Shown here: piece after piece, positions 1 to 6,925 of the stretch
How positions within the stretch are numbered: position 1 is the first letter of the stretch
How the letters are laid out: each line of letters starts with the position of its first letter
Virus record (IMG/VR): IMGVR_UViG_2675903650_000007
Span: 1 to 8,487 of that record
Length of the DNA: 8,487 nt
Reading direction: 5' to 3' (one strand)
Source: a virus
Lineage: Duplodnaviria; Heunggongvirae; Uroviricota; Caudoviricetes
Position numbers and translations under genes: made by a program
The notes under the pieces: generated by a model
Seen by the model: the letters and a program-made list of their open reading frames with translations, nothing else
The model's database searches: none
What the model was told of the DNA's origin: nothing

Positions 1-8
1 ACGCCATA

Positions 9-32
9 TCACTCTCCTTTGATGCGAATGCC
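9..32. repeat. 24-bp direct repeat, copy A (3' junction of Ea22-like paralog 2)
   Basis: TCACTCTCCTTTGATGCGAATGCC is identical at 9-32 and 852-875. On the minus strand it encodes GIRIKGE, the stop codon and the SD of the next gene. Confidence 0.85.
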
Positions 33-530
33 TGTTGCAATGCTGTTTATGATGCTGTCAGTGCATGGGGTAGAAAGCTGGGCATCTCCAGCAATTTTCA
101 TGACCTCAACATCTGCATATCGAATACCGAGGTGTATCAGACCGGCTATGCCTGACTTAAGTCGAACATTTTCCATAAACAGATCTTTTTCCCGCTGTTT
201 AGCGGCTTCCAACTCCATCGACAATTTTTCCAACTGCTCTTTATGCTTCTTGTATTCCTGATACGCGTGCCAAGACTGACCTTTGCGCACACTATCAGTG
301 ATATCAGCAACCTGCTCCGGTGTTAGCGTGGTCAGTGGCTGTGCTGGAAAAATCATCACCTTCCCGGCATCCCAATCAAAACCCGCCTGAATTGACTGAA
401 CCTCAACTGATGGTGTTGAACCGATGCGACCAGGCGAATGAACAACGATCGTTACATCCATATCGCGACGATGGCTGTGGTTGTTGGACAAAATACGATT
501 CACCAACTCAGAAAATTTGGAAAATTTCAT
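9..530 (-). CDS. Ea22-like family prophage protein, paralog 2 (173 aa from ATG at 528-530; the six-frame ORF extends to 659)
   Basis: Minus-strand ORF. Start chosen at MKFSKF because GAGGGA sits 5 nt upstream and the ATG overlaps the upstream gene's stop (ATGA). The C-terminus ...GIRIKGE* is identical to that of the 249-aa Ea22-like protein at 852..1601, encoded by the same 24-bp DNA. Central coiled-coil-like segment ([32 protein letters not shown]). Family assignment is from memory. Confidence 0.5.
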
Positions 531-850
531 GCTGATCCCTCTTTTTCTCCCCGGATAATTCTGTTGCACACATCCACACACTCGTCGCAGATGAAAACGG
601 CGTCCCCAGCAATTAACTTTTTGACGGCGTACTGGGATTTGTTGCAGAAGCTGCAACAAAGTGTTCGCCTGACTGATAAGGATGGAGCGCCAGATGTCAG
701 CCGCTCCATATCGTTCTTGCGACGCAATATCACACGGCTGAACTCAACCAGTTTCTCCGGGGATATCTCCTCCTCCGTAGCAAGCGCCTCTAATCGTTCG
801 AGTATGTGGAAGGCTTTTTTCTGGGTAATTGCAGAATGCGATGTGGTCAT
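527..850 (-). CDS. Small protein with C-terminal ClpX-type C4 zinc-finger domain (107 aa)
   Basis: Minus-strand ORF. Start at ATG 848-850 with GGAGAG 4 nt upstream, chosen over the in-frame ATG at 892 which has no good SD. The C-terminal segment [35 protein letters not shown] closely resembles the N-terminal zinc-binding domain of ClpX (CSFCGKSQHEVRKLIAG..ICDECVDLCNDII), including all four Cys. Stop overlaps the start of the downstream gene (ATGA). Confidence 0.7.
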
Positions 851-851
851 C

Positions 852-875
852 TCACTCTCCTTTGATGCGAATGCC
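852..875. repeat. 24-bp direct repeat, copy B (3' junction of Ea22-like paralog 1)
   Basis: Same 24-mer as 9-32; flanking sequence diverges on both sides. Confidence 0.85.
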
Positions 876-1601
876 AGCGGCGCGGGAATCATTCCATCGC
901 TTTACTTCTTCACGAATTACGTCAATGCATTCTTTCGAATCCATTAGGTAATCTTCATCAAAAAGACGTTCCTGTTCGTTTTCTATCGCAACAATGATTG
1001 CTTCAACTAACTTTTGTGCCTGAGAACCACTTTCTAACTCTGCAATGCGCTTCTCTGCGGCTTCCAGATTCTCGCGCATATCGTCAACGTACTCGACCAG
1101 AGATCCGCCAGCAGGAATTTCGCATTCCTCGACCAGTTGGAAGTAGATATCAGCTGCGGCCCGTGTGTTGCTATGCCTAGCGTCGCCCATCTCACCTTCA
1201 CGAAGAGCATCGCGTTCGGCGGTAAGATTGGCTATTTTGCTGTCTTTGCCTTCCAGCTCAACGCGCAGCCTCCCAACCGTAAGCGCAATATCCTCGTTCT
1301 CCTGATCGCGGCTTTTGATGTATTGCAGGTTTCTTTCCCGTTCATCCAGCAGTGCCAGCACGGTAGCCGGGTTAGCCTCTGCTATGAATTCAGCGTTTGC
1401 ATAAGCCTGAGCATCTGTTTCAACCAGGCAGTTAACGTGACATTCTGCAATTACGCCACCGGGTTCTCCTTTCCATTTTTGACAAACAAAAACTCCTGTT
1501 AAATTGCCGTGTTGGTTAACAGATGTATGCCCTACGATGTAGCTTCCTTTAGTTGCTTTCTCTGCCTTTTCACGCAGTGCCTGATAGTTAATCTCGCTCA
1601 C
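852..1601 (-). CDS. ead/Ea22-like family prophage protein, paralog 1 (249 aa)
   Basis: Minus-strand ORF with GTG start at 1599-1601 overlapping the upstream stop (GTGA) and GGAGG 7 nt upstream. N-terminus [19 protein letters not shown].., acidic coiled-coil middle, C-terminal ..GIRIKGE* shared with 9..530. Family assignment is from memory of E. coli prophage annotations. Confidence 0.6.
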
Positions 1602-1822
1602 TCTTCATCCTCCAAGTCGGCAACGGCGTCCATCACATCAGAACCGCGAATAACCTCAAAAGCACGGCAGGCCATTTGAAATACCAGTTGCTCTTGCGGG
1701 TGAGGAGACTCCCAATATTTGAAGCCTGGGCGATGCGTGTACCCCATCATTGAATAAAAATCACCAGCAAGCTTAATCGCGGCATCGACAAGCTCTCTGT
1801 TAGTCATTCTTTTTCCGCTCAC
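1598..1822 (-). CDS. Hypothetical small prophage protein (74 aa, acidic C-terminus)
   Basis: Minus-strand ORF. GTG start at 1820-1822 overlaps the upstream stop (GTGA) and has GGAGG 6 nt upstream. An alternative ATG start at 1805-1807 would give 69 aa. No recognised domain. Confidence 0.5.
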   Translation of the reverse strand: MSGKRMTNRELVDAAIKLAGDFYSMMGYTHRPGFKYWESPHPQEQLVFQMACRAFEVIRGSDVMDAVADLEDEE

Positions 1823-2250
1823 TGGTTGCCTCCTTTGCGAAGCTGGGCAGCAAAGTCAACTAACCACTCAGTCATTTCAACCTTCCCTACCAGGTCTGAA
1901 CCAGGGTACATACAGCAATCACTCTGCGCCGCTTTGAAATCCTTATACTCATATTCTTGGGCCACCAGATTTTTTGCAGCTTCTATAGCAGCATCCACCC
2001 CCTGCGCCCGGACTTCAGCCAGGAAAGCATCAGTGGCTGGCATATTTCCTGTTGCCTTCATTGCCTCCAAAATAACCAGAACGCCATCTCGCCCAATCTC
2101 CTCGCAGATAACCTCGGTGCTGTCGCCAACAACATCGCAAAATGCCTGAACTGCTTTACGAGCCAGCGCATCTTCCGCCCTGTGAAACGCCTCGCGGTTG
2201 AAATTTTCATATCCCGTCATTGGACCGGCAATATAAACTCTCACCCTCAC
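1819..2250 (-). CDS. Hypothetical protein with nucleoside 2-deoxyribosyltransferase-like (DUF4406-type) N-terminal motif (143 aa)
   Basis: Minus-strand ORF. GTG start at 2248-2250 overlaps the upstream stop (GTGA) and has AGGAGG 7 nt upstream. The N-terminus VYIAGPMTGYENFNREAF matches the K-IYIAGPMTG motif of DUF4406 / deoxyribosyltransferase-like phage proteins, but the remainder is longer and did not match my recollection of that family. Confidence 0.55.
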   Translation of the reverse strand: MRVRVYIAGPMTGYENFNREAFHRAEDALARKAVQAFCDVVGDSTEVICEEIGRDGVLVILEAMKATGNMPATDAFLAEVRAQGVDAAIEAAKNLVAQEYEYKDFKAAQSDCCMYPGSDLVGKVEMTEWLVDFAAQLRKGGNQ

Positions 2251-2639
2251 TCCATCACCTCCTGAAAGTTTCCCCGATAGAACGCCAGCACACGCTGCAT
2301 AACTTCGCTCCTCCTGCTCTCACGACAAATTATGTTCTGCCGTCTGTTGTAACGACGTATTTCTCCGTCAGGTAACTTTCGAATCAGTGTCGGGTCAGCA
2401 GCCTTCTCCGGTGTCTTACGCCATACGCGATACGCCTGCTCTGATGGAAATACCCCGCAACCAGAGAGCCAGACATCACCACTGGCCGCAAGCGCACCAG
2501 ATAAACGACGAATAGCGGTCTTACTGACACCCGTTTTATCTGCCAGTTGTCGAAAAGTTTCTCGTCCGCTCAGGCGCACGAATTCCACAATGCGCGCCTT
2601 CACTTCTTCCCGCTCTTCTGGTGTAAATACTTTTGCCAT
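2247..2639 (-). CDS. Hypothetical prophage protein (130 aa)
   Basis: Minus-strand ORF. ATG at 2637-2639 with GGAGG 5 nt upstream; the ORF track's TTG at 2654 is rejected. Basic, possibly nucleic-acid-binding (..KTGVSKTAIRRL.. resembles an HTH). Stop overlaps the next start. Confidence 0.55.
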   Translation of the reverse strand: MAKVFTPEEREEVKARIVEFVRLSGRETFRQLADKTGVSKTAIRRLSGALAASGDVWLSGCGVFPSEQAYRVWRKTPEKAADPTLIRKLPDGEIRRYNRRQNIICRESRRSEVMQRVLAFYRGNFQEVME

Positions 2640-2654
2640 AAGCGCCTCCGGCAA

Positions 2655-5925: not shown

Positions 5926-6426
5926 ATGAAAAGAAAACCCCTGTCAGAGATCGACCTGCAAGCCGCCCAGAGACTGAAAGAAATCTGGACGACGAAAAAA
6001 ACTCAACTTGGGTTAACCCAAGAGCGTGCGGCAGAAATTCTGGGTTTTTCGACACAAGGGGCAGTAAGCCATTATCTAAATGGTCAGACACCTTTAAATC
6101 TAGAGGCTGTTATCAAGTTCGCTGGGTTGCTACAAGTTCCGCCTGAGTCAATTAGACCAGATATGGCAGACTTGTTACGAATTGTAAGGATGTACCCCCA
6201 AGAACTGCAGCAGGATAATGTTGTCGCTTTACCCGCAGAGATGGAACAATCGGAAAACGAACTTCCGTTTAATATAGAACCTATAGAGCGAGATTTGATC
6301 CAGACGTTCAGGGCTTTCCCAAAAGAAGACAAAGAGAAAATGCTTAAGGAAATGAAGGAGAAAAAAGAATCAATTGAAGAAACCGTTGCGCGGTGGCTAG
6401 AGGCGCAAAAAGGTCTTCGCGCCTAA
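5926..6426 (+). CDS. Prophage repressor, XRE-family HTH, no S24 peptidase domain (DicA/RacR/PaaR2-like; 166 aa)
   Basis: Divergent from the cro-like gene across an operator-containing intergenic region. HTH motif LTQERAAEILGFSTQGAVSHYLNGQ. The C-terminus is Lys/Glu-rich helical and lacks a LexA/CI-type autocleavage domain. Followed after 17 nt by the antitoxin gene, so the three genes are probably co-transcribed. Confidence 0.8.
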   Translation: MKRKPLSEIDLQAAQRLKEIWTTKKTQLGLTQERAAEILGFSTQGAVSHYLNGQTPLNLEAVIKFAGLLQVPPESIRPDMADLLRIVRMYPQELQQDNVVALPAEMEQSENELPFNIEPIERDLIQTFRAFPKEDKEKMLKEMKEKKESIEETVARWLEAQKGLRA

Positions 6427-6443
6427 TCTGAGGAGGTTAGAAC

Positions 6444-6635
6444 ATGAGTACAGTCCTTTCCCCGATAATTTCAGAATTTGAAACAATCGAACAAGAAAAC
6501 AGCTATAACGAATGGTTACGCACCAAAGTGGCAGCAAGCCTCGCAGACCCCCGTCCTGCAATTCCGCATGACGAAGTAATGGCTGAAATGGAAAACCTTA
6601 TTGCGCAAATAGCTTCGACGAACAGGAGTGAGTAA
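6444..6635 (+). CDS. Small antitoxin (PaaA2-like) of a ParE-type toxin-antitoxin pair (63 aa)
   Basis: Strong RBS GAGGAGG 6 nt upstream of the ATG. Small acidic protein (..SEFETIEQENSYNEWLR..) whose stop overlaps the toxin start (TAATG at 6633-6637). The sequence resembles my recollection of PaaA2 from E. coli O157 prophages. Confidence 0.75.
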   Translation: MSTVLSPIISEFETIEQENSYNEWLRTKVAASLADPRPAIPHDEVMAEMENLIAQIASTNRSE

Positions 6636-6925
6636 TGCTGCCCATTTTATGGCTACCTTCTGCGCGTGATGATTTGCGTCAGATCGTAGCCTATATTGCC
6701 AAGGAAAACCCTCCCGCTGCACGTAGACTAAAAATACGCATTGAAACATCAGTTTTGTCACTTACTGAACACCCTTACCTGTATCCACCAAGCGAAAGAG
6801 CTCTAGGCCTTCGTGAGATAGTGACCCATCCTAACTACATAATACTTTACCGAGTAACAGCATCTAACATCGAGATCGTAAATGTAGTTCACTCACGAAG
6901 GCAGTATCCAAACAAAAGCTGTTAA
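6635..6925 (+). CDS. parE: ParE/RelE-superfamily toxin (ParE-like; 96 aa)
   Basis: Size and motif pattern typical of ParE toxins (LP-LW..A..DL..I..YIA.-NP.AA..L...I......L...P.-G......L-LRE.V-...YI--YRV....IEI-.V-HSRR). Translationally coupled to the preceding antitoxin gene. Confidence 0.8.
   Translation: MLPILWLPSARDDLRQIVAYIAKENPPAARRLKIRIETSVLSLTEHPYLYPPSERALGLREIVTHPNYIILYRVTASNIEIVNVVHSRRQYPNKSC

Follow-up and report, generated by a model that had tools for sequence, protein, structure and literature searches.

The 143-aa open reading frame (ORF) examined here is very probably an in-frame mosaic of a DUF4406 gene and an Eae-like gene, located in the early post-replication region of a lambdoid Escherichia coli prophage. 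It lies within a stretch of 8,487 nucleotides that was analyzed as a whole and is referred to as the window. Both parentages, the junction between them and the loss of the remainder of the DUF4406 gene were observed directly, and no observation spoke against the chimeric origin. The protein, MRVRVYIAGPMTGYENFNREAFHRAEDALARKAVQAFCDVVGDSTEVICEEIGRDGVLVILEAMKATGNMPATDAFLAEVRAQGVDAAIEAAKNLVAQEYEYKDFKAAQSDCCMYPGSDLVGKVEMTEWLVDFAAQLRKGGNQ as translated from the window, begins with MRVRVYIAGPMTGYENFNREAFHRAEDALARKAVQ and ends with FAAQLRKGGNQ, and the whole ORF is 100% identical to a sequence in E. coli DETEC-S792 (NZ_CP116067.1). The gene and its parts have the following coordinates.

1819..2250, minus strand: the whole chimeric ORF (143 aa) with a GTG start and a TGA stop.
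2258..2263, minus strand: Shine-Dalgarno sequence AGGAGG, 7 nt 5′ of the GTG, read directly from the sequence.
2247..2250, minus strand: GTGA start/stop overlap with the upstream DUF977 gene (2247..2654), in which the GTG overlaps the TGA stop of DUF977.
2164..2250, minus strand: DUF4406-derived 5′ segment (gene nt 1–87, aa 1–29) with the β1 strand, the YIAGPMTG loop and the start of helix α1.
2164..2171, minus strand: crossover, an exact 8-nt microhomology ATGCGCTG common to both parents (gene nt 80–87; three-way DNA comparison).
1994..2163, minus strand: Eae-like module B (gene nt 88–257, aa 30–86), ending in the conserved PATDAFLAEVRAQGV linker.
1859..1993, minus strand: exchangeable internal cassette (gene nt 258–392, 135 nt), from blastn mapping and sequence comparison.
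1819..1858, minus strand: conserved tail ending in FAAQLRKGGNQ plus the stop codon, a shared module boundary.

A first-pass annotation of the DNA had described the N-terminus of the protein as a DUF4406/deoxyribosyltransferase-like hallmark, and Pfam agrees: DUF4406 (PF14359) matches aa 4–31 with E=1.4e-6 and 29 bits, which formally exceeds the gathering cut-off of 22 bits and corresponds to positions 2–29 of the 91-position profile. The motif (V/I)YIAGPMTG..N...F lies at aa 5–22, with columns that are invariant between this protein and intact family members, and over gene nt 1–80/87 many E. coli genomes have annotated DUF4406 genes with 92–97.5% identity. Judged by its sequence, the N-terminus is truly homologous to DUF4406 and not similar by chance. 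The homology ends at about residue 29–31, and no DUF4406-type match reaches past query residue 35 among 1.84 billion representative proteins, in agreement with the remark in the annotation that the remainder is foreign to this family. Intact DUF4406 relatives cover profile positions 2–91 of 91 with 89–124.5 bits.

The missing part of the domain is not hidden elsewhere in the window. In tblastn and blastn searches with intact DUF4406 only aa 1–32 were matched, and aa 33–100 (∼70 residues) are found in no frame of the window; we therefore regard the joint as the product of a deletion or recombination rather than of a frameshift, and the annotation was right in seeing none. The conserved block GW..S.GA..E..LA..LG of intact DUF4406 proteins is likewise absent from the 143-aa protein and from all six frames of the window. 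Judging from the family, the Glu of the GW..S.GA..E block would correspond to the catalytic Glu of NDT/Rcl enzymes. The nucleoside 2-deoxyribosyltransferase profile (PF05014, Nuc_deoxyrib_tr) does not match the 143-aa protein, and matches intact DUF4406 proteins weakly (E 0.003–0.04). Sequence searches of the PDB with the chimera and with intact DUF4406 returned nothing significant, and the three papers found to name DUF4406 do so only in passing.

Structure prediction points in the same direction. An AF2 run on 33 near-identical homologues gave an unusable model (pLDDT 45), and the prediction repeated with 48 diverse representatives reached a pLDDT of 81 and a pTM of 0.59. This model consists of helices 15–43, 45–68, 74–99, 105–114 and 119–138 and has no β-strand; it is all-α and lacks the Rossmann/flavodoxin-like α/β fold. 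Residues 1–12, which include the hallmark YIAGPMTG motif, are disordered (pLDDT below 50), residues 80–140 have pLDDT values of 94–97, and one continuous helix (15–43) runs across the junction. Foldseek found no significant fold match in the PDB (best E 2.2) or in BFVD (best E 0.35), and no deoxyribosyltransferase or flavodoxin-like protein was among the matches listed by three fold searches.

These results bear on the proposal of the first-pass annotation that the protein might retain the deoxyribosyltransferase fold and modify nucleosides or nucleotides, i.e., that it is a true DUF4406/NDT-fold member whose C-terminal two-thirds have strongly diverged. The intact hallmark motif, the score above the cut-off and the name “DUF4406 domain-containing protein” that PGAP gives to a 116-aa sibling would fit such an enzyme. 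However, residues 30–143 are 95–98% identical to the C-termini of proteins outside DUF4406 and are therefore not diverged DUF4406 sequence, the GW..S.GA..E motif is gone, and the model is strandless without any NDT-like fold match, all of which makes this reading extremely unlikely. The profile match stops at position 29 of 91 (29 bits, compared to 124.5 bits over positions 2–91 in an intact relative) and the predicted fold is unrelated; the proposal is thus refuted. An NDT-fold enzyme was rejected on the grounds of profile coverage, the lost motif, the model and the fold searches. Likeness to PF05014 enzymes is confined to the β1-loop motif, which is shared through DUF4406; in contrast to them, the chimera has no PF05014 match, α/β fold or structural match. 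It lacks three of the four testable DUF4406/NDT features (full-domain match, acidic block and α/β fold), and should not be filed under DUF4406 despite passing the gathering score. We infer from sequence and model that its product would have no deoxyribosyltransferase/N-glycosidase activity.

As judged from profile and database matches, residues ∼24–143 correspond to the C-terminal module of Ead/Ea22-family “eae-like domain” proteins. In PHROGs, the C-terminal parts of phrog_368 (E=5.9e-33), phrog_492 and phrog_614 match aa 24–143, whereas the N-terminal part of phrog_368 instead matches the neighboring Ead/Ea22-like gene at 852..1601. A search of 5.8 billion proteins returned 3030 matches, the best of which are 88–100% identical over query ∼25–143 and carry source names such as “eae-like domain protein”, “ead/Ea22-like family protein” or, rarely, “hNH endonuclease”. 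In the alignment of these matches, the module is almost invariant from ...LARKAVQAFCDVVG onward, with 93 invariant columns, and is attached to at least six unrelated N-termini. Its landmarks ARKAVQAFCDVVG ... PATDAFLAEVRAQGV ... FAAQLRKGGNQ are all present in the 143-aa protein. Pfam and NCBIfam contain no model for the module, and NCBIfam gave no meaningful match for the chimera, for intact DUF4406 or for an Eae-like donor from O111 (WP_000672528.1).

The tripartite architecture of N-terminal segment, coiled coil and C-terminal domain (CTD) is not preserved, as the 143-aa protein has the CTD-equivalent module only. PF13935, which covers the N-terminal segment and coiled coil, does not match it at E≤1, and matches the neighboring gene 852..1601 at 9e-33. 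In the chimera this part of the donor is replaced by 29 aa of DUF4406. Fusion by recombination to an Eae-like C-terminal module thus accounts for the length and atypical character of the protein.

The C-terminal part is itself composed of two independently shuffling sub-modules (aa 24–∼88 and ∼69–143) that overlap in the PATDAFLAEVRAQGV linker. Homology to eae-like and ead/Ea22-like genes starts at gene nt 72–80 in blastn, matches to module B in the search of representatives cover query aa 24 to ∼88, and homology to all donors ends 6 nt past the stop codon of the chimera. The internal cassette at 1859..1993 is identical in the C-terminus of an “HNH endonuclease” of Salmonella phage VSe13. This VSe13 protein (L007:1096–1722) has no Pfam match at E≤1. 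An HNH endonuclease identity of the C-terminal module (window 1819–2040) was considered and rejected, as no HNH domain match backs the label; on the VSe13 protein, as on a C-terminal fragment annotated by PGAP, it looks like a propagated misnomer.

Related heads and tails occur in other combinations. In a 203-aa protein from a Logan contig (P0230; SRR23636720, L018:3001–3612), a complete DUF4406 domain (PF14359, 1–91/91, E=2e-30) is joined to an Eae-type tail (...HPATDAFLAEVRAQGVEMFA...FAAELRKGGNQ). Two Ead_Ea22 genes come next, and at least three contigs carry P0230; this natural fusion means that the Eae tail has elsewhere been joined to an intact DUF4406 head too. Within the window, the N-terminal part of an ORF (9..530/659) is, at positions 193–548 on the minus strand, 92% identical at the DNA level to that of O111 WP_000672528.1 (L003:2119–2853), a protein that ends in the Eae-like C-terminal module also seen in the chimera. 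Within one gene pool, the same heads and tails have thus been paired in more than one way by recombination. In addition, a 28–37-nt repeat (window 848–884 and 3–34, minus strand) forms the 3′ ends of two Ead/Ea22-region genes that both end in ...GIRIKGE*, and is conserved at equivalent gene boundaries of most comparison loci. It looks like a linker at a module boundary, of a type that favors the exchange of cassettes.

For base-by-base comparison we used the DUF4406 gene of JE86-ST02 (L006:1501–1803, 100 aa) and the eae-like gene P0002 (L008:3001–3519) as parents. The chimera is identical to the DUF4406 parent at 83 of 87 nt over gene nt 1–87 and follows P0002 from nt 80, with 345 of 349 identical nt over nt 84–432 (98% DNA identity). 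Around the crossover the parents themselves are identical at 13 of 15 nt (gene nt 73–87, window 2164–2178). The resulting in-frame splice, ...AFHRAEDAL/ARKAVQ..., passes from the predicted α1 helix of DUF4406 to the end of the coiled-coil segment of the donor.

The same bipartite pattern appears in database searches. By megablast against 5426 complete E. coli genomes, gene nt 1–80/87 fall under “DUF4406 domain-containing protein” genes just after DUF977, and nt 72/80–432 under “ead/Ea22-like” or “hypothetical” genes; in phage genomes the partial matches divide likewise. A non-redundant check against the 1.84 billion representatives (50% identity) gave 151 matches, in which DUF4406-type hits end at or before query residue 35 and Eae-type hits start at ∼18–25, or at ∼62–70 for the last sub-module. 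The sole representative that spans the junction is P0123, a 116-aa sibling chimera.

Many of the 50%-cluster representatives that match the DUF4406 N-terminus (P0219–P0269) are short (48–120 aa) and run out of frame after 30–60 residues, so frameshifted or truncated DUF4406 genes appear to be common in public assemblies. This would favor the view that the 143-aa ORF is a frameshifted, mis-assembled or mis-called DUF4406 gene, with an odd C-terminus produced by sequencing or ORF calling. Nevertheless, the junction is the same base for base in eight independent complete genomes, DUF4406 residues 33–100 are in no frame of the window, and thousands of proteins share the C-terminal part as a genuine conserved module. 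We therefore consider an artefact next to impossible.

Gene mosaicism in lambdoid prophages is textbook knowledge, and exchange at short homologies is the accepted source of it. A role in relaxed homologous recombination has been reported for phage Rad52-like recombinases (PMC3945230). In our model, a single recombination event fused the 5′-terminal 87 nt of a DUF4406 gene with the 3′-terminal ∼350 nt of an eae-like gene of the Ead/Ea22 family. The crossover in ATGCGCTG placed the coding region of DUF4406 helix α1 onto the end of the region that encodes the coiled coil of the donor, and the DUF4406 part supplies the AGGAGG ribosome-binding site and the GTG that overlaps the DUF977 stop codon. 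Lost in the event were ∼70% of DUF4406, with its conserved acidic C-terminal motif, and the portion of the Eae-like gene for the N-terminus and coiled coil.

The AGGAGG has the same upstream sequence at the intact DUF4406 locus of E. coli 042, indicating that it was inherited from the DUF4406 parent. Similarly, the GTGA overlap with DUF977 has the layout annotated at intact DUF4406 loci, and such an arrangement would allow translational coupling of the ORF to DUF977. Since the native Shine-Dalgarno sequence, the GTG start and the DUF977 overlap are kept, and since the frame is open in all eight copies found, the 143-aa ORF is probably translated. Directly 3′ of the chimera lies a 74-aa ORF (1598–1822, minus strand; 69 aa in the PGAP version, WP_001350881.1), which aligns to positions 105–178 only of the 179 positions of phrog_4132 (E=8.7e-43) and may correspond to the C-terminal end of a protein that is longer in other phages.

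The nearest relatives of the chimera are WP_072006479.1, P0002, WP_001545907.1 and WP_001266130.1. The two intact DUF4406 proteins, WP_001545907.1 (JE86-ST02, 100 aa) and WP_001266130.1 (E. coli 042, 98 aa), share its first 29 residues, with 95–97% DNA identity of their genes over nt 1–80/87. In E. coli 042 the gene has the same position after DUF977 and the same Shine-Dalgarno sequence and GTGA overlap, whereas the JE86 copy follows a “hypothetical protein”. Compared to these proteins, the chimera is devoid of domain residues 30–100 (profile 30–91) and hence of the GW..S.GA..E..LA..LG block. P0002, a 172-aa “eae-like domain protein” of an E. coli prophage, is identical to it from ALARKAVQ... 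to ...LRKGGNQ except for A78S, and both genes lie upstream of an Ead/Ea22 gene; P0002, however, has its own 58-residue N-terminal segment where the chimera has 29 DUF4406 residues. WP_072006479.1 (116 aa; E. coli SCU-106, STEC17-183, LZSFT34 and SW070917) is the sibling chimera, with the same junction and prophage context. Its gene nt 1–257 are nearly identical to those of the 143-aa form and the region of nt 393–432 and the downstream flank are homologous, but the cassette at 1859–1993 is replaced by an unrelated 54-nt segment leading to ...VEMMREHPSIKLCSLTHICDELAAQLRKGGNQ.

With a 121-nt junction probe, for which a match over at least 80% of its length was required, the junction was found in eight of the 5426 complete E. 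coli genomes, compared to 1303 genomes in which some part of the gene was matched. Three genomes (DETEC-S792, S1-CAM-02-A and 99RCEF) carry the 143-aa form, identical to the window, which PGAP splits into two pseudogene fragments (“DUF4406 ... missing C-terminus” and “hNH endonuclease ... missing N-terminus”). The other five carry the 116-aa form, annotated as an intact “DUF4406 domain-containing protein”. Gene nt 1–257, nt 393–432 and the downstream flank are common to both forms, which differ only in the internal cassette (135 nt versus 54 nt). It is therefore most likely, as far as sequence comparison can tell, that the junction arose once and was followed by cassette exchange at conserved linkers. 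Replication modules of two kinds, lambda-P-like and DnaC/IstB-like, occur among the carrier prophages, whose host strains originate from China, Switzerland, the USA, Ecuador and Brazil. Within each form the copies differ by 0–3 nt and are too similar for a dN/dS selection test. One 116-aa copy, in E. coli S19-651 (L016:1172–1522), carries A8V, which changes YIAGP to YIVGP in the hallmark motif; this single observation is compatible with relaxed constraint on the N-terminal relic.

The donor of the chimera's tail belongs to the same Ead/Ea22-like modular group as lambda Ea22. Ea22-like early proteins consist of a short N-terminus, a coiled coil and an exchangeable, variable CTD, and lambda Ea22 has been reported to be pro-lysogenic, with a poorly defined function (PMC10834534, PMC7093339). 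Full-length lambda Ea22 forms a tetramer with a pro-lysogenic phenotype that was not obtained with the CTD by itself (PMC10834534). PDB sequences, among which the reported NMR structure of this CTD should be included, yielded no significant phmmer match for the chimera. The lambda CTD is mixed α-β and unrelated in sequence, whereas the module of the chimera is predicted to be all-α, and the lambda gene lies between exo and xis, in contrast to the position of the chimera downstream of replication genes.

The chimera works like neither parent in full. We infer that any activity would be that of a head-less, uncharacterised Eae-like C-terminal module. By analogy to lambda Ea22, such a module would interact with a host or phage partner and influence the lysis-lysogeny decision. 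By the behavior of the lambda CTD, it may be inactive when detached from its coiled coil, but this parallel is weak, as the lambda CTD has no sequence relationship to the module and is mixed α-β.

Recombination more probably left the gene as a tolerated by-product than gave rise to a new function under selection. A retained function would be compatible with eight of eight intact copies across two replication modules and five countries, the strong Shine-Dalgarno sequence and the high pLDDT (94–97) of the C-terminal 60 residues. On this basis it is conceivable, albeit rather unlikely, that the chimera is a selected new gene, in which a stand-alone Eae-like C-terminal domain is expressed via DUF4406 translation signals. 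Its product might compete with or modulate full-length Ead/Ea22-family proteins, or bind their host partner. In favor of selection are the open frame in all copies, in prophages with different replication modules, the survival of the junction through later cassette exchange, the start/stop overlap that would allow coupling to go with the strong Shine-Dalgarno sequence, and a C-terminal module that the model folds confidently. The separate fusion of an Eae-type tail to full-length DUF4406 in P0230 adds that the tail is reused on different heads. Against it, the junction is rare (eight of 5426 genomes, with 1303 matching some part of the gene) and A8V in one copy is consistent with no constraint on the N-terminal relic. 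The coiled-coil region, which is needed together with the CTD for the lambda Ea22 phenotype (PMC10834534), is also missing, although this is an analogy between unrelated CTDs.

A more specific version, which we hold to be distinctly improbable, is that of a selected head-less Eae-like protein whose tail (PATDAFLAEVRAQGV...FAAxLRKGGNQ) is a promiscuous targeting or partner-binding module, with the chimera competing at or modulating a shared partner. If true, lambdoid prophages would attach the Eae tail to varied heads, including Ead/Ea22 coiled coils, full-length DUF4406 (as in P0230) and a VSe13-type N-terminus.

The locus is a case of ordinary prophage gene mosaicism and reveals no new nucleoside-modifying enzyme. 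In RefSeq the exact 143-aa sequence is already marked as partial genes; what is new is its reconstruction at base level, which holds no surprise. The locus provides a clean, base-resolved example of how lambdoid prophages form in-frame fusions at very short homologies, and the same locus shows continued cassette exchange at conserved linker motifs after the fusion. It also matters for annotation hygiene, as a partial Pfam match of 29 bits suffices for a DUF4406 label on the 116-aa sibling even though ∼70% of the domain is missing.

Elsewhere in the window, a three-gene cassette on the plus strand (5926–6925) comprises an HTH_3 regulator (5926–6426, 166 aa), a PaaA2-type antitoxin (6444–6635; PF21217, E=2.9e-22) and a ParE toxin (6635–6925; PF05016, E=4e-18). 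It is similar to PaaR2-PaaA2-ParE2, a toxin-antitoxin system of a prophage in E. coli O157, and the HTH protein occupies the expected position of the prophage repressor. On the minus strand, positions 527–892 encode a 121-aa prophage protein whose C-terminus matches the ClpX C4-type zinc finger (PF06689, E=1.7e-15), in agreement with PGAP; the match marks it as a putative stand-alone mimic of the ClpX N-domain in the early operon.
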